Source of the DNA: Deltaproteobacteria bacterium
GTDB taxonomy: Bacteria; Bacteroidota; Bacteroidia; Chitinophagales; Saprospiraceae
Assembly (NCBI GenBank): GCA_050258615.1
Contig: JBLMZC010000021.1
Location: 12,404 to 76,403, forward strand
DNA: 64,000 nucleotides
Reading direction: 5' to 3'
Shown: positions 13,356 through 41,150 of the stretch, piece by piece
How positions within the stretch are numbered: position 1 is the first letter of the stretch
Layout of the letters: each line of letters begins with the position of its first letter
Notes under the pieces: model-generated
The model's input: the letters and a program-made list of their open reading frames with translations, nothing else
What the model was told of the DNA's origin: nothing
Database searches by the model: none
Program-made: the position numbers and the translations under genes

Positions 13356-13542
13356 GAAGCACCTAAAGTTTTCAATTTCAGTCACTTTGGAACAGTTTTT
13401 GTCGTTTTATCTTTGTAATTATTTTTTTTAACGTTATAAATCATTTTTAAGATGAAAAAACAAAATTTTTTAGATCAAATTACCCCCCCCCTTTATGGGT
13501 AAATAGCTGTATAACAGCACATTACGATTAGCGGTTTTTAGC

Positions 13543-15378
13543 ATGTTGATTTTATCTTCTTTTTTCTTGTTCAATGCATGCAATAAGGATAGGGAACTAT
13601 TGAATGATTCTGTCGTTAGTCTAAGAAGCGATGCTGTAGCTTATAATCTGAATGGATTGGCATTAGAATTTTTTAACTGGTATAATCTGCAAAAACCACA
13701 TGTGAACTTTGAAGATGCTAATTATGGATTCGTGCCTTTTACATTTGAAATAGACTGGAGCAGTGGATCCATGTTGAATGTATATGGTTATAATTCTTTA
13801 GCATTCAATGTATTAAACAATCCGACCGATTCGAACTTATATATCCGCAACCAGATTTTGTTTGTAAAAAATGGAAATATAATTGAAATAAAAACGCTAT
13901 CATATGTTGCAGATGAAGATTTTTATAATGATTTAGTTTTAATACCAAGTATAATCAATTTTACAGGTTTTGTACTTGAATCATCAGGAAGTCAAAATCT
14001 TATCGATAAAATACATAGAGTATTTTATGGAAAATTATATAAAACAATTATACCTCCACCAGATTTAAACTTAAATCCTATTGTTCCAAAGGCTGATAAT
14101 AATAAAAATTTATCAATGCACCTAAGAGGTGACCCTCAGCCAGAAGAGTGTGACGATTTTTTTAAAAGGAAAACATGGCTTGGCTGATTATGGGATTCAT
14201 TTACTGATTGGCTTAATAGTGGGTCAGGAGATTATGAATGGTGGAAATGGCCTGGTGCAAATTATGGAGAAGGTTTTGGGTGGCCTTTTTGGTCTGGAGG
14301 AACAAGTGGTTCTGGTGGTGGTGGTGGAAATACTAAAATTGATCCATGAGATAATCCGAAGTCTTTAGCTAATTCTGCTTGCATTGATGCTAATTACGGA
14401 TTACTACAGAGCGTATTTCCAGAAATTTTTGATTCTAATTATTTTCCTGATTTTTGTAATACCGGTACAGGAGATGAATTTAATATTAAATTTGCATTAT
14501 CATTATTTTGTTCAAAAAATAACAACAGTATTAATCTTGGTACAGAGGAAGATTTAAATGCATTTAAAAGCTTTGTTTATGAAAGAAAGAAAAAAAGAAT
14601 CCTTATAGCTCTCAATTGGTGCAAGGAATGTAAGGATAAATTTTCAGAAATTGAAGATTCGTATGGTATTGATATTTCACAGGATATAATGATACAGACT
14701 TTATGGAGCCTCGGCAGTTGTGCCAATAAAGGTTCATTGGAATATGTGGCCATCCAATTGATGGTGAGAGAATGTCTTGGTGAGTTTTATAACCTGCTGC
14801 CACAGCTTGGTATTACCGATTTGCAATCTCAGATTGATCTCTGCAATGGTAGTGATGGAGGTGTATTGCCAGATTGCGAGGGCTGTTCGGTGGGTGAAAA
14901 GCAAATTGTTTGGGGCGATCATTTAAGGGCGAGAGAAATGTTGCAATGTGCTATTGATAAATTAGAAGGCTATAATGGTGAAACGCCTTTAAAAGTAAAA
15001 AATGAAATGATGATAAACTTTGGTGGTGAATATAGTAAAGAATTAGCAGATTTATTAAAATTTATCTTAAAAGTAATTAAATTTAGATCAAGCCTTTGCG
15101 ATTATCAAGCAAGTGATGATTGCCCTTCAGGTGTGCTCGCAAGGAGTTATCGATTTTTGCAAGTTACAAAAGTTGAATTATGTAGACCAAATTACTGGAA
15201 TGGAAATGATAGAGATCGAAGTAAAACATTAATACATGAATGGATGCACCTATATTATGGAGCAGATGACTTTGCTTATGCCTGGCAATGGCCAAAATAT
15301 AGTCAATTATCGGCTGTGAAACAGTTTTTAAATGCAGACTCTTTTGCTGAATTTGTAAAATGGGTATGCAATGAATAA
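13543..15378 (+). pseudogene. Lipoprotein with C-terminal aspzincin (M35-like) metalloprotease domain; frame interrupted by two in-frame TGA codons (14185-14187, 14347-14349)
   Basis: Frame 1 is open from 13543 to 15378 except for the two TGA codons. The segments 14188-14346 (53 codons) and 14350-14688 (113 codons) have no ATG/GTG/TTG start yet stay stop-free in AT-rich DNA. The N-terminus MLILSSFFLFNAC has a lipobox. The C-terminus carries TLIHEWMHLYYGADDFAYA (HExxH plus a GTxDxxYG-like motif) and NADSFAEF. Confidence 0.55.
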
Positions 15379-21305: not shown

Positions 21306-24017
21306 TCAGAATTCGATAGTGTCACCAATATGTAGTGAATTGTCTGATTTTTTGTCTTTATTTTTAGTTTCTTTTTTTTCAATTATTTCTTCATCAGGAA
21401 ATGATTTTTCATCATTTGTATCACTTGTCGTTTCATCTTTGAACCTATTATTTTCTTCTTCAGAATAGTCTTCTTCTTCATTAAATTCTTCTGAAGCAGT
21501 ATCGTCATCCATCATGATTTTATTAGTATGCTCTATTGATTTAATTGTGAATTCACCAATTTTATTTCCCATAGCTTTCCAACCTTTGATGCCGACTATT
21601 TCGGATGCATTCAGTTCTTTTTCCTGATTGATCTTATTGTGAATATATGTAATTTTGATTATCGGATTTTCATCAAAACTGACAAAGTACAACCTGGCAT
21701 CTTTATGTTCTGAAATGAAGAGGAATTTTTCATCTACCTTATTGGTCTCGATCTTAAACCTCTTTACCATCGACCACTGTTTATCACCATCGTAGTGGAC
21801 GGCAGTGATCACGGTATCTTCATTTAACTGATGAATATCTGTGATGTTTTGATAATCGAGTGTGATCACTTTACTGACTTCTTTTATTTCATAATGCCCA
21901 GATTTGTAGATCACTATGATTTTATCTTCAGTATCGAATTGACCAAGATATTTTCCCAGCTCGTTTTTATTCAATTTTCCCGTTATTTCATCGTACCAGT
22001 ATTTTTGTTTTCCGAGAGAAGATTTTCCTTTTTCCAGAAAACTCACCTTTTTTACCGGATATTTGGTGACCGTATTACCAAGGGAACTCCTGCCTTTTAT
22101 CATCAGATTTCCAAAGTCAAAATCAAAAACCTTGTTTTTTGCTTTGCAACCAGGTGTAAGGAATACTTTGACTATTTCTGTTTCACCGTTTGGATTTACT
22201 GAAAAATACAGGACTTTACTGAAATTATGATCTGTGATAAGATTATATTCTTTATCCCTTGTTATAGCATTAACCTGGAATCTCTTTGCATATGTATTGC
22301 CGGTATTTCCATCGAGATAGATAAGGTGATAAGTTGTGCGTTCATCATCTTTTTTCCATAATCCGGCATGAAGGAGGTTTTTACCCATAAATACCTTATC
22401 TCCTATACGGTTGATTATGCATTTTCCATCCTGTCTGAAAGCTATTATGTCATCGATATCAGAACACTCACAAACAAAATCACCGATTTTGGAATTCGTA
22501 CCAATAAATCCGTTTTCAGGATCGATATAAAGCTTGGCATTGTTTACGATCACATTTTTAGTTGCAATTGTCTCGATATTGATTATTTCAGTACGTCTTT
22601 CCCTGCCGGTACCGTAAGTTTTTTTAAGGTGTTCGAAATATTTGATGGTAAATTCGGTGAGGTGTTTCAGATCGTAATTTACCTGCTTCAGTTCATTTTC
22701 GAGTTCTGCCAGATATTCGTCGGTTTTAAAGGAATTATACTTCGATATTTTTTTGATTTTAATCTCTGTGAGTTTAATGAGATCGTCCTGTGTGATCTCT
22801 CTCATCAGCTTTAGTCTCTTATCAGCTGGCTGAAGTTCGGAAGGAGTAGCAACATATTTTCTCAAGCCTATGTCGATTATTTCCAGGGCTGTCTCAAAGC
22901 TTTCTGCCTCTTCAATGTCCCTGTATATCCTATTTTCAATAAAGATCTTTTCAAGGCTTGTGAGGTGCCATTTTTCGAGCAGTTCATTTTTTTTGATCTC
23001 GAGTTCCTGCCTTAGGAGTTCTTTGGTCCTGAAAGTTGACAGCTTCAGGATTTCAAGCACTGTGAGGAATTCGGGTTTATTATTGACAATTACACATGCA
23101 TTGGGAGAGATAGAAACTTCGCAATCAGTGAAAGCATATAGCGCATCACGGGTAACTTCAGGTGAAATGCCTGGCAGTAACTGGACTTCTATCTCCACAT
23201 TTTTTGCTGTATTGTCAGTGATCTTTTTTATTTTTATTTTTCCTTTCTCCACTGCTTTCAGTACACTGTCTATCAGTGTCTCGGTGGTAACTCCATAAGG
23301 CAATTCATTGATTATAAGGGTTTTCTTATCAAGAATGTCGATTTTTGCCCTTACTTTCACTTTTCCGCCACGCTCACCATCCTTGTACTCTGAAATGTCT
23401 ATTTTTCCTCCCGTCTGGAAATCCGGATATATGACCACTTCTTCGTTCTTTAGTATGCAAACCGATGCATCTATTAATTCAATGAAATTGTGAGGGAGAA
23501 TTTTAGTTGAAAGGCCTACTGCAATCCCTTCAACACCCTGAGCGAGTACCAACGGAAACTTCATCGGGAGATGCACTGGTTCCTTGTTTCTGCCATCGTA
23601 AGATTGTTGCCATTCTGTAGTCTGCGGATTGAAAGCCACTTCGAGAGCAAATTTTGTTAGTCTGGCTTCGATATAACGTGGTGCAGCCGCTGAATCACCT
23701 GTACGAATATCGCCCCAGTTTCCCTGAGTATCGATAAGCAGATCCTTTTGGCCAAGATTGACCAGTGCATCCCCAATTGCTGCATCTCCATGTGGATGAA
23801 ACTGCATAGTATGCCCAATGATATTGGCTACCTTGTGGTATCTGCCATCATCCATTCTGTACATACTATGAAGAATACGTCTTTGAACCGGTTTTAATCC
23901 GTCTTCAAGCGAGGGAACAGCTCTTTCGAGTATAACATATGATGCATAATCAAGGAAATAGTCTTTATACATTCCCTTGAGACTGATTATTTTATCCTGC
24001 GGATTGAAATTTTCCAT
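21306..24017 (-). CDS. parC: DNA topoisomerase IV subunit A (GyrA/ParC family) with acidic C-terminal tail
   Basis: DGLKPVQRRILHSM, HPHGDAAIGDALVNLGQ and AAPRYIEARL. The ~900 aa form without a GyrA-box is typical of Bacteroidota ParC. Confidence 0.8.
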   Translation of the reverse strand: MENFNPQDKIISLKGMYKDYFLDYASYVILERAVPSLEDGLKPVQRRILHSMYRMDDGRYHKVANIIGHTMQFHPHGDAAIGDALVNLGQKDLLIDTQGNWGDIRTGDSAAAPRYIEARLTKFALEVAFNPQTTEWQQSYDGRNKEPVHLPMKFPLVLAQGVEGIAVGLSTKILPHNFIELIDASVCILKNEEVVIYPDFQTGGKIDISEYKDGERGGKVKVRAKIDILDKKTLIINELPYGVTTETLIDSVLKAVEKGKIKIKKITDNTAKNVEIEVQLLPGISPEVTRDALYAFTDCEVSISPNACVIVNNKPEFLTVLEILKLSTFRTKELLRQELEIKKNELLEKWHLTSLEKIFIENRIYRDIEEAESFETALEIIDIGLRKYVATPSELQPADKRLKLMREITQDDLIKLTEIKIKKISKYNSFKTDEYLAELENELKQVNYDLKHLTEFTIKYFEHLKKTYGTGRERRTEIINIETIATKNVIVNNAKLYIDPENGFIGTNSKIGDFVCECSDIDDIIAFRQDGKCIINRIGDKVFMGKNLLHAGLWKKDDERTTYHLIYLDGNTGNTYAKRFQVNAITRDKEYNLITDHNFSKVLYFSVNPNGETEIVKVFLTPGCKAKNKVFDFDFGNLMIKGRSSLGNTVTKYPVKKVSFLEKGKSSLGKQKYWYDEITGKLNKNELGKYLGQFDTEDKIIVIYKSGHYEIKEVSKVITLDYQNITDIHQLNEDTVITAVHYDGDKQWSMVKRFKIETNKVDEKFLFISEHKDARLYFVSFDENPIIKITYIHNKINQEKELNASEIVGIKGWKAMGNKIGEFTIKSIEHTNKIMMDDDTASEEFNEEEDYSEEENNRFKDETTSDTNDEKSFPDEEIIEKKETKNKDKKSDNSLHIGDTIEF

Positions 24018-24129
24018 TCAGTATTTCTGTATTATTTCATAGATACCTATCAAAAAATAGGATACATTAAAAAATACAAAGATACGTTATAATATGATAT
24101 TTATGAAATGATATATAAAATAAAATTGA

Positions 24130-24500
24130 ATATGTGAATAGAGATCAGAGAACAGTAAACAGTCATCAGGGATTAATTTACTTCGTGACTTTGCAGCTTT
24201 GCCTGAGAGTTAAGAGTGAAAAGTTAAGAGTGAAAAGTTAAGAATGAAAAGTTAAGAGTGAAAAGTTAAGAGTGAATAGTGAAAAGTGAAGTATGAATAG
24301 TGATTAGTTAGCAGTCTTCAGTCGGCCAGTAGTAGTTTTAGGTCTTTTAAAAATAGGTGGCAAACGAATTACAAAGGTAAAACTAGACCAGATAAACGGA
24401 AAACTGACAACAGATTTAAAGTTAAAAGTGAAAAGTGAAAAACCATCAAACCGAGTAACCATGAACAAGGTACGATCTACGATTTGAATGAATGATTGAC
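24130..24500 (-). repeat. Type III composite repeat element (inverted copy of 39457-39730)
   Basis: The reverse complement aligns by eye with 39520-39725, including the non-repetitive cores gttttacctttgtaattcgtttgccacctattttta and ctcaggcaaagctgcaaagtcacgaagtaaattaatccctgatgactg. Confidence 0.8.
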
Positions 24501-24547
24501 TAATTGAGAACAGAAATAATTAACAATTTTAAATTTACAATTTCCAA

Positions 24548-24994
24548 CTACGCAATGCGATCTTTGATATCGGGATTTAATCTCGTAAGTTCATTTTTTT
24601 CAAAGTGTGGGCAATCAGTACATTTGGAGTGGTTTTCAATGCCTTCTATAAGTTTAAAACACCTTGTACATCTGAACCATTCACGGTCAAAGGAACAATT
24701 GCCTCCTGCGATCTCAATTTTTCTTCCTTCAACAAATGCAATTCCAATTATGTGCAAAGCACGATTGTATATACGGGTAAATGTAGGTCTTGATACCTGC
24801 ATTAATTGAGCTGCATCGTCCTGGAGCATTTTTTCATAATTCACAAGCTTTATGCTTTCGAATTCCTCAAAACTCATACTCAAAGGTTCAGTATCTACAT
24901 TTGTACATCCATAAGGTATAAAGCCTGACATTTGTGGCGGACTTGTTATCTTCCTAATTTTGCTGGGTCGTGGCATTTTTTTTACTCCTGACAA
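24548..24994 (-). CDS. DUF134/UPF0251-family DNA-binding protein with C-terminal CxxC...CxxC zinc-ribbon-like tail
   Basis: PRPSKIRKI, FIPYG, EEFESIKLVNYEKMLQDDAAQLMQVSRPTFTRIYNRA, and CTRC...CTDC. The true start is possibly the internal Met at 24976. Confidence 0.65.
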   Translation of the reverse strand: MSGVKKMPRPSKIRKITSPPQMSGFIPYGCTNVDTEPLSMSFEEFESIKLVNYEKMLQDDAAQLMQVSRPTFTRIYNRALHIIGIAFVEGRKIEIAGGNCSFDREWFRCTRCFKLIEGIENHSKCTDCPHFEKNELTRLNPDIKDRIA

Positions 24995-26564: not shown

Positions 26565-26890
26565 TTACGATTCAGCAGTAGGACAGCAGTCGGCAGTCGG
26601 CAGTCAACAGTCGGCAGTCGGAAGTTGGCAGTCGGAAGTCGGCAGTCAAGAGTCGGCAGTCAGCAGTCGGAAGTTAACTCAGTAAATAAATAATTCAATA
26701 TCTCAATATCTCAGTTGGCAGTTGGCAGTTGGCAGTCTTCAGTCAGCAGTCTGAAGTCAGCAGTCTGAAGTCAACAGTCTGCAGTTAACTAAATAACTCA
26801 TTAAATCAATAACTAAATAACTCAATAAATAAATAAATAAATAATCAAATCACTCCTTTAATTATTTTGCTACCATAATAATTCCTCTCC
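26565..26890 (+). repeat. Type II mosaic repeat element (C words ggcagtc/cagtcttcagt alternating with E words ataactcaataa; ends AATTCCTCTCC)
   Basis: Starts right after the 26564 stop. Same module order and orientation as 46148-46463. Confidence 0.85.
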
Positions 26891-26974
26891 TTCGATTTTT
26901 CAGGCCAAAACTGTTTGAGGTAGGTGACAGTAATGCCACAGAAGACCAATTTCACAAGAAAGCAAAAAGAAAAA

Positions 26975-27115
26975 ATCACATTATAATGTGATTCAGGCAA
27001 ATTTCATTATTCAAACAGGGTTATTTATAGCGAAAATCACACTAAAATGTGATTATGTTTGTATAATTTAAAAAATAAACATACTTTTGATGCAAAAATC
27101 ACAGTATAATGTTAG
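26975..27115 (+). promoter_or_regulatory. Three putative HipB operators (AAAATCACA-N6-TGTGAT) plus a TActTTTG -7-like promoter motif
   Basis: atcacattataatgtgat (26975-26992) is a perfect 18-bp palindrome. atcacactaaaatgtgat lies at 27036-27053. atcacagtataatgttag (27098-27115) overlaps the hipB ATG. Spacing is 61-62 bp. TACTTTTG at 27082-27089 fits the Bacteroidota -7 consensus TAnnTTTG. Confidence 0.55.
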
Positions 27116-27318
27116 TCTCGATATTAGGGGAAACCATTAAAAACAGAAGAAAGGAGTTAAACATAACTCAACCTCACTTAGCTGAACTGGCAGAAGTGAG
27201 CACCAATACTTTATATAAACTTGAGCGTGGGCAAGGCAATCCTTCGTTAAATATATTGAATAAATTAGTGGAAGTATTAGGCTTGGAATTAATACTTGAT
27301 GTAAAGAAGCAACATTAA
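27109..27318 (+). CDS. hipB: XRE-family HTH protein, HipB-like
   Basis: 69 aa with the typical HTH_3 pattern IKNRRKELNITQPHLAELAEVSTNTLYKLERGQGNPSLNIL. First gene of a tightly packed triplet. Confidence 0.75.
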   Translation: MLVSILGETIKNRRKELNITQPHLAELAEVSTNTLYKLERGQGNPSLNILNKLVEVLGLELILDVKKQH

Positions 27319-27322
27319 GTAA

Positions 27323-27652
27323 ATGAGAGCATTAGAAATATATTGTAATGGGATTTTGGCAGGAATACTAATAGAAGAAAATCGTCGACATTATGTTTTC
27401 AAGTATGACGACAGATATTTTACTGATACAAGTAAGCAAGCAATAAGTTTGACCTTGCCAAAATCGCAAAAAGAATACAGTAGCAATTTTTTGTTTCCAT
27501 TCTTTTTCAATATGTTGAGTGAAGGGGTAAATCGAAAATTGCAAAGTACTCAATTGAGAATAGACGAAGAAGATAATTTTGGCTTGTTAGCAGCAACAGC
27601 ACAATATGATACGATAGGGGCAATAACAGTAAAAACAATAGTGGTAAAATGA
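27323..27652 (+). CDS. hipS: HipS-like protein (stand-alone HipA N-terminal subdomain)
   Basis: 109 aa. MRALEIYCNGILAGILIEENRRHYVFKYDDRYF resembles the HipA N-terminal (couple_hipA) domain. Its stop overlaps the next start (ATGA). Confidence 0.65.
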   Translation: MRALEIYCNGILAGILIEENRRHYVFKYDDRYFTDTSKQAISLTLPKSQKEYSSNFLFPFFFNMLSEGVNRKLQSTQLRIDEEDNFGLLAATAQYDTIGAITVKTIVVK

Positions 27653-28653
27653 ATGTAGATGAATTACAATACTGTCCGGGAACTTTGGCTGAAGGTTTTT
27701 CTACTTACAGCCCAAGCTGCTTAAGGAATTTGTTTAATGGCAAAAAAGTAAATCATATTTTGGCTTATGAGCATCCACAGCAAAGTGAACAGATGGCTGA
27801 GCAGTTCATGGAAAATCGAAAACACATATCTATATCAGGAGTGCAGGAAAAATTAAGTTTGCTTTTAGAGAAAAATATATTGCGATTGACGAAAGAAGGA
27901 GAACGTGGAATGTATATACTCAAACCGATACCAAGGGATCTGAAAAAGGTTGACCAAGTTCCTGCTAACGAACATTTGACAATGCAAATAGCTAAACAAG
28001 TATATGGACTAAAAACGGCAGAAAACGCCATGATTTTCTTTAATAATGGGACCCCGGCTTACATCACTAAACGATTTGACATAAAGGAAGATGAAAGCAA
28101 ATGGGGAACGGAAGATTTTGCAACGTTGGCAGGGAAAACAAAAGACAATTCAGGACAAAATTTCAAATATGAATATAGTTATGAAGAGGCGGGGCTTTTG
28201 ATACAAAAATATGTTTCCGCTTGGAGGGTTGAAATAGAAAAATATTTTTCTTTAGTAGTATTCAATTTTTTGTTTTCAAATGGTGATGCTCACTTGAAAA
28301 ACTTTTCATTGCTGGAATCATTAAAAGGGGACTACTTGCTTAGTCCGGCTTATGATTTAGTAAATACAAGACTGCATGTAGACGATACTGATTTTGCATT
28401 GGATAAAGGACTATTTGCAGACGACTTTAAAAGTGAGCAGTACAAAAAAAATGGACATCCTTCAAAAAGTGATTTTTATGAATTTGCAAAACGTATAGGA
28501 GTTATTGAAAGCAGATTTAAAAAACTAATAAGTCCGTTTTTGGATAAGCAAGCATTTGTTGAAAAATTAATCTATCATTCATTTTTAAGTGATTCAAACA
28601 AGAGAGGTTATTTGTTGATGTATAATACAAAAAGAAACTATTTAAATTCGTAA
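27649..28653 (+). CDS. hipT: HipT-like Ser/Thr kinase toxin (HipA C-terminal kinase core lacking the N-subdomain)
   Basis: Gly-rich loop HISISGVQEKLSL (the SIS doublet known from HipT), catalytic GDAHLKNFSLL, and the Mg-binding region PAYDLVNT. Confidence 0.75.
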   Translation: MNVDELQYCPGTLAEGFSTYSPSCLRNLFNGKKVNHILAYEHPQQSEQMAEQFMENRKHISISGVQEKLSLLLEKNILRLTKEGERGMYILKPIPRDLKKVDQVPANEHLTMQIAKQVYGLKTAENAMIFFNNGTPAYITKRFDIKEDESKWGTEDFATLAGKTKDNSGQNFKYEYSYEEAGLLIQKYVSAWRVEIEKYFSLVVFNFLFSNGDAHLKNFSLLESLKGDYLLSPAYDLVNTRLHVDDTDFALDKGLFADDFKSEQYKKNGHPSKSDFYEFAKRIGVIESRFKKLISPFLDKQAFVEKLIYHSFLSDSNKRGYLLMYNTKRNYLNS

Positions 28654-28830
28654 ATGGCCTGAGAATTTACTGAAAATAAAAGCGCCTGATAAGATTCCTC
28701 CTTGTTTACTCTCAAAGTAATGATATGCATTTTCGCCCCAAAGGCACCAACTTTGATAATATCATTCCGTACGTAGTGAGGAATCTTTTCTTTCATTGCC
28801 AGCAATTATCTTATATTGAAATCAGGTTAT

Positions 28831-29047
28831 ACCATTTACAATTATTCTTTAGTCCAATTGCAAAAGGTCTTACTGACACTGACACTGATACTGACACTTC
28901 GGTCAGCACAGGCACTTTGGTCTGCACAGGCACTTTGGTCAGTACAGGCACTTCGGTCAGCATTTAAAACATAAAGCCGATACAATACCTCTATAGTCCA
29001 ACTTTGTCGGTACTTTTTCAGATATACTTTCAGTATTACTTTCAGAG
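28831..29047 (+). repeat. D-family mosaic element, copy a
   Basis: Scaffold accatttacaattattctttagtccaattg, then (actgac)n, then about 3.5 copies of an 18-mer, then cacttcggtcagcatttaaaac...tagtccaactttg...cagatatacttt. Aligns with 57265-57420. Confidence 0.85.
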
Positions 29048-29110
29048 CCTGTCTCGCTAAACGGGAGTCCAAGCATAACCCAAAGAATTTAATAATACCA
29101 TTTCTATATT

Positions 29111-29380
29111 AAGGTGATAAGAATGATTTGCAGCAAGAGGACAAAAGTCCTTTGCTGCGGAGTCCCGCTCCGTGATAAAGGTCTTACTGACACTGACACT
29201 GACACTGACACTGACACTTTGGTCAGTACAGGCACTTTGGTCAGTACAGGCACTTTGGTCAGTACAGGCACTTTGGTCAGTACAGGCACTTTGGTCAGTA
29301 CAGGCACTACGGTCAGCACAAGACTGACCTCTTATCACAAACTTTAAATTTAAAGCAGTTTTAAAAAAGAATTCCTCTGA
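29111..29380 (+). repeat. D-family mosaic element, copy b (largest array), preceded by a 12-bp-stem hairpin
   Basis: Hairpin gcagcaagaggac-aaaa-gtcctttgctgc (29130-29158). (ACTGAC)x5 at 29186-29215. (GGTCAGTACAGGCACTTT)x5 at 29221-29310. Inverted flanks gtgataaaggtc / gacctcttatcac. Confidence 0.9.
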
Positions 29381-29526
29381 TTCTGAAGCTTTTTTTTTGC
29401 AATGGAAAATATGCAAAATAATTATATTATTTAATAATAGAATTGGTATAAATTGCAAATTTGAGATACACTAAAAAAACCCAAAAATGACTATCATCTG
29501 AAAAAAATCAATCTAAAACTAATGGT

Positions 29527-37827: not shown

Positions 37828-38454
37828 TTATTCCTTTTCAAAAAAATAACCTGCTTTTTCAGCCCCCCAGAGGTAATTGTCATTTTCGTCAAAACCCCTG
37901 TCCCAGGTTATCATGCCTTCTTTTATGATAGTGATGATTGAAGTGGCATATTTTGCACCTCTCCAGCCGCTCAAACATTTCTCACCATCTGTAGAACCTG
38001 AATACATTTTTTTTCCGACTTTTTTAAGCCTGACTGCACATCCGGACTTTGAAATAAGGATTTCTTCGCCTTGATCAGCCAGGGGATTTTTGTTTTTCCA
38101 TTGTCCGACAAATCTCAGGGGATCTTTTATTTCGAATATCTCACTTTCGAAAAGATTGTACCCTGTATCGGAAAGTCTGTAGACTCTTTGTCTGTATGGT
38201 TTATCCTGAGTTTTAGCAGCAGCCTGTTCGACATAAAACCATATTCCGTCGGTTCTTTTATCCCAGATCCTTTTCATGTGAAGCCTGATATCAAAATATC
38301 CGGTATCCAGTTTTGACTGTTCCGTCGTGTTATAATTACCTTCCATCTGTCTGGCCAGGCTAAGAAGTTCAGGTGAAAATGCCTGAGCCGAAATACTTAT
38401 TGACAGGAAAATAATTCCCAAAGTAATAAATAACTGTTTTGTCATATTTTTCAT
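37828..38454 (-). CDS. CpcT/CpeT-family (DUF1001) lipocalin-like protein, secreted
   Basis: Signal peptide. The family pattern GNYNTTEQ...FYVEQAAAKTQDKPYRQRVYRL (YRQR motif). Confidence 0.5.
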   Translation of the reverse strand: MKNMTKQLFITLGIIFLSISISAQAFSPELLSLARQMEGNYNTTEQSKLDTGYFDIRLHMKRIWDKRTDGIWFYVEQAAAKTQDKPYRQRVYRLSDTGYNLFESEIFEIKDPLRFVGQWKNKNPLADQGEEILISKSGCAVRLKKVGKKMYSGSTDGEKCLSGWRGAKYATSIITIIKEGMITWDRGFDENDNYLWGAEKAGYFFEKE

Positions 38455-38460
38455 TTTAAA

Positions 38461-39456
38461 TTACAAAATTAAGCCAGGAATGATTTCCAAATGGTTTTCC
38501 TTCCAGATTTTCATCTGCATTTCCTGATCGATATTTCCACCGGAGATAATAATAAGAATTTTCTTTGGTGTAGGTTGTGTTTTAAGCCATTGTCTTGCTG
38601 CTTCCATTGACATGGCACTCGTTGGTTCAATAGATATCTTAAGCAAATGGGTCAGCCACTGTGTCCAGTATACAATGGATTGTTCATCAATTTCATACAT
38701 ATCGTCAAGTTTCTTAAGATATTCGAATGTGATACTTCCTACTGACATAGTCATAGCACCATCAGCAAGTGTGTCAGGTACAGAATCAAGATTGAGTATC
38801 GAATTTGCCCTGAGTGATCTGGCAGCGTCATTGGCATTCAGTGGTTCAGCCCCGATCACTTTGATATCAGGATCCAAACCATGACTTGCGATGACTGTTC
38901 CTGACAGCAATCCACCTCCTCCGCATGGGGCAAAAATAGCATCAACCTGCCCAAGCTCATTTATAGCCTCATAAGCTGCAGTTCCCTGTCCGGCAATGAC
39001 AAGGTCACTGTTAAATGGATGCAACCAGTAGTTACCTTCCTCTGAAGCAGCTGATTTTACATTGTCATCGGTTTCCACCCTTGAATTGCAAAGGACTGTT
39101 TTGGCTCCATAAGCTTGGGTAGCCTGTATTTTTATCTTTGATGAATATACCGGCATGTAGATTGTAGATGGAATATCGAACTCGCTTGCTGCCCATGCAA
39201 CAGCCTGAGCATGATTGCCGGAACTATTGGCAACAATGTGCCTGGGCTTTTTTCCATTTTCAATCAGCCATGCAACACTGTTGGCGGCTCCCCTGGCCTT
39301 AAAGGCTCCTATTTTCTGCATGCATTCTGCCTTGAAATATATCTCATGGCCTATCCATTTGTTGAGTAATGATGAAGTATAAACAGGAGTTTTATTGATC
39401 AGTTTTCCGATCCTGTTCCCGGCATTGATTATATCTTCGATTTTAAGTAGTTTCAT
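38461..39456 (-). CDS. PLP-dependent threonine/serine dehydratase or serine-racemase-family enzyme
   Basis: FKAECMQKIGAFKARGA (PLP-Lys motif), SSGNHAQA and GGGGLLSG (phosphate-binding loop). Confidence 0.8.
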   Translation of the reverse strand: MKLLKIEDIINAGNRIGKLINKTPVYTSSLLNKWIGHEIYFKAECMQKIGAFKARGAANSVAWLIENGKKPRHIVANSSGNHAQAVAWAASEFDIPSTIYMPVYSSKIKIQATQAYGAKTVLCNSRVETDDNVKSAASEEGNYWLHPFNSDLVIAGQGTAAYEAINELGQVDAIFAPCGGGGLLSGTVIASHGLDPDIKVIGAEPLNANDAARSLRANSILNLDSVPDTLADGAMTMSVGSITFEYLKKLDDMYEIDEQSIVYWTQWLTHLLKISIEPTSAMSMEAARQWLKTQPTPKKILIIISGGNIDQEMQMKIWKENHLEIIPGLIL

Positions 39457-39927
39457 AGGTAATTGTTAATGGTTAATTGTAAATTGTAAATTGTAAATTT
39501 TTCATTTTTAGCTTTTCACTTTTAATCAGTTGTCCGTTGTCAGTTGTCTGTATATTGGTGTCGTTTTACCTTTGTAATTCGTTAGCTACCTATTTTTATA
39601 AGATCTCAAACTGCTGACTGCCAACTGAAGACTGCAGACTAATCATTCTTCACTTTTAACTTTTCACTCTTAACTCTCACGCAAAGCCGCAAAGTCGCAG
39701 TGCAAATTAATCACTGATCACTGATAATTTTTCACTCTTCACTTTTAATTTTTCATACTTCAGTCCACAGTCTTCAGTCCACAGTCTTCAGTCCACAGTC
39801 AGCAGTCTTCAGGCTCCACTCCAAAGTCAACAGTTCTTAGATCATTTTCAAATTAACACATTTTCAAAATTTCAAATTGGTACATCATCAAATCATCTCA
39901 TTTTCAAATTTTCAAATTGCCTCATTT
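39457..39927 (+). repeat. Composite mosaic repeat filling the whole intergenic gap (F, G, A words; type III cores; C words; ttttcaaatt words)
   Basis: Runs from the dehydratase ATG (3 nt from CCATTAACAATTA on the minus strand) to the stop codon of the serine hydrolase gene, which lies inside the last cattttcaaatt word. Confidence 0.85.
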
Positions 39928-40971
39928 TCAAATTGACAACTTTCGTATAAGTTTAATCAAAACCCTGAATGACAAATCATTAAATGCAGTCTGATTGACT
40001 GTTCCTGTTATGTACAGATCTCTTTCAGGGCTATAGAAAGCCAGTGCACCGCTAAGTCCTGAATGTCCGATCAGATCCGGAATTTTTCGGAAAGGATCAA
40101 AGATCCAAGGAAGTCTGAACCTGTGAATTCCAATTCCGGATTGCATGGGAAAGAAAATTTTATTCCATTTTTTTAATCCACCGATATAGTAGGCAGGAAA
40201 CAATTTTCCTGAAAAAAAAGCTTCAAGGAATATCATCATTTCCTGTGATGTTGATACTACACCACCATCAGGGCCGAATGAAGACATGGCTTTTGGTATA
40301 TGAAGTTCTTTTTCTTTGAAATACAGAGTCAATGGCTTTTGATCGTTGATATCAGTGTACAGGTATGTTGACTTTAAATCTAATGGTTTAATTATCAATT
40401 CATTATAATTTTCTGATATATTTTTCCCCGTGATATTTTCAATTATTTTTCCCAATAATTGATAATTTGTATCTGAATAATATGCTTTGCCTTTAGTTCC
40501 CGGGGCAAATAACTGATCAAGTGATTTGCTGTAACTTATAATTTCTTCAAAAGGCAGGTATCGGTCGTTTCCTTTGGTGATCTCACTGACAATACTATTG
40601 CCATTATCGTCTTTCTGAAGGAAATAATCAGACAATCCGGAAGTATGTGCCAGAAGGTGTGTTATAGTTAGTTTATCAGAATAATCAGTACCATTATATA
40701 CGTGGAGTTTATTCATTATGTCCCTGTCAAAGTAAGTGTGTATTTTGTCGTTTAAGCCGAGTTTGCTTTGTGATATCAGATTTAGAATTACAGCAGTTGT
40801 AAACAGTTTTGAAGTACTGGCTATAAAAAACTGCCTGTCTTTTTCTATGTTTCCACTACTACCATTCCAGGTTTCTCCCCTGTATTTTAAGCAGAATGAT
40901 GTGCCAAAGATCTTTTTATTATCGATAGCTTTATCAAGAACTGAGTGGAGGGATTGTTGGTTTAGAGGCAT
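39928..40971 (-). CDS. Serine hydrolase, beta-lactamase/transpeptidase-like (class C/esterase family)
   Basis: SxxK motif FIASTSKLFT and YSDTNY (YxN). I place the start at the Met at 40971, because the 16 codons upstream (to 41019) are encoded by repeat words. Confidence 0.7.
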   Translation of the reverse strand: MPLNQQSLHSVLDKAIDNKKIFGTSFCLKYRGETWNGSSGNIEKDRQFFIASTSKLFTTAVILNLISQSKLGLNDKIHTYFDRDIMNKLHVYNGTDYSDKLTITHLLAHTSGLSDYFLQKDDNGNSIVSEITKGNDRYLPFEEIISYSKSLDQLFAPGTKGKAYYSDTNYQLLGKIIENITGKNISENYNELIIKPLDLKSTYLYTDINDQKPLTLYFKEKELHIPKAMSSFGPDGGVVSTSQEMMIFLEAFFSGKLFPAYYIGGLKKWNKIFFPMQSGIGIHRFRLPWIFDPFRKIPDLIGHSGLSGALAFYSPERDLYITGTVNQTAFNDLSFRVLIKLIRKLSI

Positions 40972-40974
40972 AAA

Positions 40975-41150
40975 TATAATTGTTAATGGTAAAAGGGTAA
41001 TAAGGTAACAGGGTAACAAGGCATTTGGTAATATGGGTTATTAAAATAATTGTAAATTGTAAATTTTTAACTTTTACTTTATACTTTCAACTTTTCACTC
41101 TTCACTCTTAGTTTTTCACTTAAATTCGTAAATCGTATATTAATTTCTCC
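40975..41150 (-). repeat. Type I mosaic repeat element (minus-strand order GGAGAAATT, B, A, G, F, CCATTAACAATTA)
   Basis: Starts 2 nt after the GH125 stop and ends 5 nt before the serine hydrolase ATG. Word order and junctions match 18700-18988 and 56017-56226. Confidence 0.85.

Follow-up and report, generated by a model that had tools for sequence, protein, structure and literature searches.

The BOX elements of Streptococcus pneumoniae and the BIMEs of enterobacteria are modular, mosaic-like non-coding repeats of intergenic regions, in which the modules follow one another in a fixed order, one module varies in tandem copy number, and the whole element may lie in either orientation to the flanking genes, with a possible influence on the expression of its neighbours. 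The Correia elements of Neisseria are repeats that bring promoters with them, and they carry terminal inverted repeats and a TA target duplication. Arrays of the heptamer TAACTGA have been described from Beggiatoaceae, cyanobacteria and five Bacteroidetes, alongside the cyanobacterial STRR (MacGregor 2015, PMC4679880).

The module described here defines a new family of modular repeats in intergenic DNA. It occurs at two places in the window, by which we mean the whole 64,000-nt stretch of DNA that was analysed, from an organism found in activated-sludge and bioreactor metagenomes and assigned to Saprospiraceae by the names that its homologous proteins carry. At locus B it lies in the spacer (spacer B, 39457-39927) between a beta-lactamase-family gene (bla, 39928-41019, minus strand) and the PALP gene, which encodes a PLP-dependent serine/threonine dehydratase (38461-39456, minus strand). 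At locus A it occupies 24147-24442 on the minus strand, within the spacer (spacer A, 24018-24547) between a DUF134 gene (24548-24994) and parC (21306-24017), both also on the minus strand. The module is thus sense to the flanking genes at locus A and antisense to them at locus B. The initial annotation had pointed to an inverted copy about 15 kb away and to a motif that runs antisense to the genes around locus B, and was right about the coordinates and both orientations. We consider it probable that spacer B holds a lineage-restricted, non-coding repeat module that has been copied and homogenised by recombination, and no conserved RNA gene.

The resemblance first noticed by eye between 39520-39725 (plus strand) and the reverse complement of 24160-24420 stands up to computed alignment. 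When spacer B was aligned with the reverse complement of spacer A using MAFFT and blastn, two significant blocks of 79-83% identity were recovered, the first pairing 39498-39675 with 24442-24264 (79% over 186 columns, E 1e-38) and the second 39649-39736 with 24234-24147 (83% over 88 nt, E 9e-21); between them lies an array of A words that is ∼60 nt longer in A than in B. The cores proposed at the outset are likewise well above the level of shuffled sequence, the 36-nt core 1 pattern and the 30-nt core 2 pattern each matching twice in 64 kb and not once in 100 shuffles. Common heptamer words fill both spacers and generate many short cross-matches, as would be expected if the resemblance were a chance likeness of AT-rich, low-complexity spacers; E values of this order and a unique 36-mer present twice leave that reading, and the companion idea of an assembly artefact, with next to no credence. 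Independent assemblies of several sludge runs carry both loci, which argues against an artefact, and the element is present in relatives as well, so that we regard this explanation as already refuted. One apparent deletion allele, a joint at 39510>39729 that skips 218 nt at full contig depth, was rejected: it arose because the one long contig matches a second word spacer as well, and the element is spanned without a break by contigs. Placement of run contigs on a 216-nt reference was also rejected as a means of counting copies, as it missed the locus's own 22.5-kb contig (runs X1 and X3).

The spacers of the window are rich in tandem words of period 7 and period 8 as found by TRF. Identity at a lag of 7 nt, ∼0.26-0.30 in the background, rises to 0.53 for spacer B and to 0.49 for spacer A. 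Spacer B opens with the left word arrays (39457-39525, plus strand), in which (AATTGTA)n at 39461-39499 is followed by A-type words of the form TTTTCAC/TTTTAA, as seen by TRF and by reading the sequence. Then come (TCAGTTG)-type words at 39526-39548, the reverse complement of the C words in the TRF output, and core 1 at 39563-39598, which contains the box TACCTTTG at 39567-39574. To the right of core 1 stand the C words CTGCTGA CTGCCAA CTGAAGA CTGCAGA (39609-39640), the first part of which (39609-39628) forms with 39526-39548 an imperfect inverted repeat that brackets core 1 (20 nt, 75% complementary), and the A words TTCACTT TTAACTT TTCACTC TTAAC (39641-39674; TRF), which keep the 7-nt phase of the C words. 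Core 2 follows, divided into core 2a at 39675-39702 (TCTCACGCAAAGCCGCAAAGTCGCAGTG) and core 2b, a (TCACTGA)x2 doublet at 39711-39724. The right half of the spacer, 39728-39927, consists of A-type words, (CAGTCCA/CAGTCTT)n and (CATTTTCAAATT)n in the TRF output and is not shared with locus A. In the locus A copy, on the minus strand, core 1 lies at 24348-24383 with its box TACCTTTG at 24372-24379, an expanded A-word array with a 14-nt period and ∼6 units (TRF) lies at 24208-24310, and core 2a lies at 24181-24208.

The claim that the two loci share two non-repetitive cores holds for core 1 and fails for core 2. Core 1 is the sole truly non-repetitive segment, with a lag-7 identity of 0.31 and no periodicity. 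Core 2 is itself built of words, TCTCA(CGCAAAGC)(CGCAAAGT)(CGCAGTG)...(TCACTGA)(TCACTGA), or in short TCTCA + (CGCAAAGN)x2.5 + (TCACTGA)x2, within which TRF finds a period of 8 at 39680-39699 and a period of 7 at 39710-39725. A single 7-nt phase extends through the whole module. Of the 19 heptamers that lie between the opening word of core 1 and TCTCAC, 10 end in AC in one phase, a count reached by none of 2000 shuffles. As we read it, the module would be composed from left to right of reverse-complement C words, core 1, and C and A heptamer words in that single phase, and in this lineage would end in a captured, solo CGCAAAG-octamer arm plus the (TCACTGA)2 doublet, which together make up core 2.

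Copies beyond the two in the window, the lack of which the initial annotation had listed among the grounds for refuting it, are present in relatives. Another species (L027, with 91% amino-acid identity in PALP) has an ortholog of locus B with both cores. In a further species, sp3 (L153 and L156, ParC 84%), which is syntenic over 31 kb, the DUF134-parC spacer holds two tandem module units and the bla-PALP spacer, 788 nt long, holds four (TRF period 128, 3.1 copies, 93% matches); these units have the same relative orientations as in the window, and core 2 is absent from them. One of them, B1 (L156 5779-5932), has an extra insert of ∼50 nt with its own palindrome GCTTGATCTTCGCTACGCTCAAGC and CTTTCG-type words. 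A third syntenic genome, sp4 (L155 and L157, Saprospiraceae_JADJGA01, ParC 81%), is equally collinear but has no module in either spacer, and its bla-PALP spacer is only 135 nt long. In at least two species the module fills this pair of spacers, its copies being mutually inverted and ∼15 kb apart, and its unit number shifts by tandem duplication, from one here to two and four units of 128 bp in sp3. As for density, ∼70 kb of this genome yielded two copies only, and the ∼31 kb of sp3 yielded no locus beyond these two; the ∼6 kb beyond the window ends contained no further module copy. The two syntenic relatives also lack the block at 26565-29500 of the window, which comprises a word-array element, a HipB/S/T-like cassette and D-family elements; in L153 and L155 the aminotransferase gene directly abuts the beta-helix gene without it, and its absence from both relatives implies either an insertion here or a shared loss in the relatives.

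The word arrays, described from the start as variable, indeed differ even between strains, where the number of A words changes by slippage: the A-word array of locus A is 56 nt (4 x 14) shorter in other strains, as seen in the joint 24209>24266 (X6, X1 and X12). The heptamer array at 24517 is 7 nt (AATTAAC) longer in other strains. These whole-word length variants (24209-24266 and 24517) were seen in runs X6, X12, X22 and X7, and the cores of locus B were invariant among the strains sampled.

Module copies evolve in concert. In uncorrected distances between the two window copies and the sp3 units, the sp3 units A2 and B3 differ by 0.06 and the window's A and B copies by 0.19, whereas the window's A copy differs from sp3 A2 by 0.28 and its B copy from sp3 B2-4 by 0.20-0.24; the copies therefore cluster by genome and not by locus. 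At four-fold sites these genomes diverge by 0.63-0.68 in the LytTR gene and parC, the parC sites (0.63-0.67) being saturated, and by 0.22-0.31 in bla, PALP and CpeT. Between species the module diverges about as fast as the synonymous sites around it in PALP and bla. The values agree with a neutral model in which divergence at B keeps to this low local rate and the copy at A undergoes repeated conversion from B or from other members of the family; selection on the module may nevertheless play a part. Compared with the synonymous sites of parC, the module at locus A is far more conserved, which could also be a sign of constraint. We observed separately that window 37828-41019 has low four-fold divergence from L156 and L157, with the LytTR regulator and parC a few kb away having high values; this low-divergence bla/PALP/CpeT block could reflect recent exchange between lineages or an unusual synonymous constraint.

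The likeness of the copies would be maintained by gene conversion, with the two inverted loci as partners, or else by re-seeding from copies elsewhere, and the module may persist as recombination-driven repeat DNA. With two copies in ∼70 kb and the same two loci in sp3, conversion within a fixed pair is indistinguishable from exchange within a dispersed family. A stronger interpretation of the pairing is that the inverted copies serve together, either as binding sites of one regulator or as crossover sites that invert the 15-kb segment between them. The module is indeed at these two loci only, in 64 kb here and ∼31 kb of sp3, the copies are always mutually inverted, and across species they are jointly present or jointly absent. 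Yet the 15-kb segment has the same orientation in all three species, no recombinase gene lies in or adjoins it, the unit number ranges freely from one to four, and the run contigs contain no inversion joint between the loci, the joints flagged as being on opposite strands falling inside one contig's own repeats. A functional pair of this kind is accordingly very improbable, and homogenisation of repeat DNA by recombination is the reading that we carry forward.

Whether the module is transcribed bears on a second alternative, that of a small-RNA gene. The initial annotation saw in core 1 a match to the Bacteroidota -7 consensus TAnnTTTG, and TACCTTTG at 39567-39574 is a good box. Measured against the sigma-A type promoter of Bacteroidota (-33 TTTG / -7 TAnnTTTG), core 1 agrees with the -7 consensus at both loci, and in the -33 region locus B has TTG at 39544-39546 with a 20-nt spacer and locus A has TTT at the equivalent place. 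Intergenic TAnnTTTG sites of the window tend to fall where promoters are expected, 14 of the 22 lying in sense and no more than 200 nt upstream of a start codon. One of them, at 13,408, is 128 nt upstream of the ORF at 13543-14187 and is likely to be a real promoter; it has GTCGTTTTAYCTTTGTAATT in common with core 1, a match of 21 of 22 bases. On this match and on the placement of the TAnnTTTG sites, core 1 looks like a genuine promoter of this genome. In the window sequence around that site (13388-13420, GTCGTTTTATCTTTGTAATT), the likeness to core 1 ends immediately after the 21/22-base match.

Conservation of the box is uneven. Among nine module copies it is intact in five, reads CAccTTTG in three and TAacTTTA in one; at locus B it is intact in all three module-bearing species, and at locus A the G at 24372 is replaced in strains of runs X6 and X1, giving TACCTTTA. 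The proximal parC promoter box, TATCTTTG at 24077-24084 on the minus strand, lies outside the module, and each of the three syntenic species has retained it. The most likely effect of the module on the cell would be that of a possibly portable, outward-facing promoter, acting at locus A as a putative distal, co-directional second promoter for parC and at locus B as a putative antisense promoter directed into the 3′ end of bla, against any transcript that reads through from bla to PALP.

The RNA evidence consists of unstranded Logan contigs from the one metatranscriptome in which the organism was found (X22), whose coverage is patchy, with 13 contigs in 20 kb; the element was not covered in runs X33-X36 (three RNA runs and one of doubtful type). 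The deepest RNA contig of these 20 kb (depth 11.4) is 39647-39790, just downstream of core 1 at locus B, and the RNA piece neighbouring it at bla has a depth of 3.3. At locus A, RNA contigs of depth 2 enter from the DUF134 gene and cross the box, a pattern that points to read-through or to carried-over DNA. TAnnTTTG does not occur on the minus strand of spacer B, and to judge from this PALP is probably co-transcribed with bla; such co-transcription could alone explain the RNA coverage at locus B.

Taken over its full length, spacer B forms a long imperfect palindrome in which word arrays are nested. Its C words at 39610-39640 pair with the (CAGTCCA/CAGTCTT)n words at 39776-39806 (31 nt, 84% complementary), an inverted-repeat search finds the outer left array (AATTGTAAATT)n mirrored by the right (CATTTTCAAATT)n, and core 2 is located in the loop of the resulting hairpin. 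The spacer folds better than every one of its shuffles, with z = -4.1 on the minus strand (the sense of the genes) and -3.6 on the plus strand. The palindrome would be a large structured intercistronic element if one transcript covers bla and PALP. The long hairpin is specific to locus B and lies outside the sequence common to A and B. The shared module itself folds no better than its shuffles (z = +0.69 on the plus strand and -0.46 on the minus strand), and RNAalifold on eight module copies gave -2.03 kcal/mol and four pairs, with no conserved structure; the examination of RNA structure and covariation proposed for the shared cores thus turned out negative. Searches for known RNA genes were equally unproductive: Rfam gave no match in the window at the gathering score and, on 17 related loci, only an unrelated tRNA-Sec, and a tRNA/tmRNA search found none. 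No terminator was found in a sigma-70 promoter and terminator scan, a method unsuited to Bacteroidota promoters. The module had no blastn match in plasmids and phages, and viral contigs gave no match to core 2 and three chance matches to core 1. An 18-mer of core 1, tried against genome contigs, returned 23 single matches of 18-21 nt in unrelated taxa, all of them chance; this query asked for too exact a match, since the copies in L027 and sp3 have differences within the 18-mer.

These results allow the small-RNA reading, which is in line with the repeat-rich non-coding or antisense transcript of the initial annotation, to be weighed. It supposes that the module is a gene for a cis-antisense or trans-acting RNA that starts at the core 1 promoter and is rich in words, and at locus B that RNA would be antisense to the beta-lactamase-family gene. 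The canonical extended -7 box with its 21/22-base likeness to the probable promoter at 13,408, the general placement of intergenic TAnnTTTG sites in the window, the intact box at locus B in all three species and the position of the deepest RNA contig are all what such a gene would lead one to expect. However, the putative transcript would consist of expandable word arrays whose length varies among strains and species, it has no stable or conserved secondary structure and no terminator was found, four of the nine copies have a degenerate box and at locus A the box varies between strains, a syntenic relative (sp4) has no module, and the thin, unstranded RNA contigs are explained equally well by read-through from bla to PALP. 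We therefore judge a small-RNA gene unlikely and continue to favour a non-coding repeat that may carry a promoter.

Core 2 belongs to a different story. A metagenome collection scanned with TCTCANGCAAAGCNNCAAAGTC yielded at least 120 loci (L033-L152) in at least 118 distinct contexts; among the matches listed, the octamer repeat occurs on contigs of 35-69% G+C and reads TCTCACGCAAAGCCGCAAAGTCGCAAAG in nearly all. An inverse arm, (CTTKGCGN)n...GCGTGAGA, lies within 150 nt in 58 of 118 of the matches listed and is imperfect; fixed mismatches C.C, U.U and A.G were observed in these inverse arms. In some genomes the octamer repeats form multi-copy families with longer conserved flanks, for example on five Ga0209172 contigs. 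Several of the matches listed appear by eye to stand directly after a stop codon, and a test of this placement was not used as it was confounded by spurious long ORFs in high-G+C contigs. Compared with the consensus TCTCA(CGCAAAGN)3, derived from at least 118 instances, the arm of copy B matches at 26 of 28 positions and that of copy A, the decayed TCTCAGGCAAAGCTGCAAAGTCACGAAG, at 24 of 28; the first 25 nt of the former, core 2 as TCTCACGCAAAGCCGCAAAGTCGCA, are identical to the consensus arm. The octamer hairpin repeat has no Rfam family, we found no paper that prints the octamer strings, and our literature search turned up no description of it among the few papers that mention GxxExxY.

In one metagenomic locus (L059) two octamer hairpins flank a gene for a 127-aa PDDEXK_3 protein (Pfam E 5e-42), and in two others (L080 and L130) a PDDEXK_3 gene lies 1-404 nt from the arm; the other octamer loci among the matches listed have no adjacent PDDEXK_3 gene. 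At L059 1500-2266 we noted a (ACAGACTG)n array, then the two octamer hairpins with the GxxExxY/PDDEXK_3 gene between them, then a third arm. The (ACAGACTG)n words resemble the C words of the window, both being built round ACTG/GACTG, and adjoin the nuclease cassette. In the window, the inverse arm CTTKGCGNCTTKGCGNCTTTGCGTGAGA occurs nowhere in the 64 kb, and tblastn found no PDDEXK_3 (GxxExxY) gene there. The arm is solo, it is decaying, no PDDEXK_3 gene lies nearby and the sp3 units lack it, from which it follows that it is not the engine of the module: in this lineage core 2 is a passenger that the module has captured and that is now in decay.

Were core 2 instead a recognition arm, the module might belong with MITEs or REPINs as a non-autonomous element mobilised in trans, either by a transposase or by the GxxExxY (PDDEXK_3) nuclease found with the octamer hairpins elsewhere. 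The module's presence and absence differ between syntenic species, its copies are more alike within a genome, core 2 matches a widespread arm at 25 of 25 bases, a PDDEXK_3 gene stands beside such arms in L059, L080 and L130, and metagenomes hold multi-copy families with conserved flanks round the arm, all of which would suit such an element. But the arm has no inverse partner in the window, the sp3 units multiply without core 2, an inverted-repeat search found no terminal inverted repeats bracketing the module at locus A, a three-way alignment made no target-site duplication evident at filled or empty sites, and neither a transposase nor a PDDEXK_3 gene is encoded in the window. That the same two loci are filled in two species argues for inheritance over repeated insertion. 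Folding and the inverted-repeat search, applied with a REP/REPIN-like palindrome in mind, also indicate that the module itself is not palindromic. Mobility in trans is, on balance, a doubtful explanation to which we attach little weight. We attach less still to a more speculative version, in which a portable promoter cassette is copied between spacers by DNA-level machinery that writes heptamer and octamer arrays, the CGCAAAG arm marking its site of action. If it were true, word-array spacers would be the footprint of an active copy-and-paste system and not of passive slippage, and that system, shared across phyla, could move regulatory signals.

For the reading that we prefer, a lineage-restricted repeat spread and homogenised by recombination, the locus shows on a small scale, and cleanly, how an intergenic repeat of Bacteroidota evolves in concert, with zero, one, two or four units in the same two spacers of syntenic species. 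The promoter-like box travels on the repeat unit, and such repeats can rewire transcription, for instance by giving parC a further promoter or by sending antisense transcripts into an adjacent operon. On a practical level, they also break short-read assemblies. Core 2 connects a low-G+C Saprospiraceae genome to an octamer hairpin repeat that recurs near letter-for-letter in contigs of 35-69% G+C. This wider octamer-repeat family is the more interesting object, of which the window holds a decaying solo arm only.

Set beside the described systems, the module has affinities with several. It shares with the Correia elements the character of a short intergenic repeat with an outward-facing promoter-like box, and differs from them in having neither terminal inverted repeats nor a target duplication. 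With the tandem-octamer (CGCAAAGN)3 hairpin repeats it has in common the 25 nt over which core 2 is identical to their consensus arm, although the window has one arm only, without the inverse arm and without a nuclease gene nearby. Like BOX elements and BIMEs, it is non-coding, confined to spacers, fixed in the order of its parts, equipped with a variable unit and found in either orientation; no sequence relationship to them is known, the window module is known from two loci, and in place of a palindromic REP-like unit it has in-phase arrays of 7-nt words round a unique promoter-like segment. The STRR and TAACTGA arrays resemble it in being tandem 7-nt intergenic words, in arrays that differ in length from one close relative to another. 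TAACTGA itself, letter for letter, has no repeats in the window, but the (TCACTGA)2 doublet at 39711-39724 is one letter per unit away from it, with related words in distant phyla. What distinguishes the present module from those simple arrays is its composite construction, in which a unique core and several word types in fixed order are duplicated together as a block.
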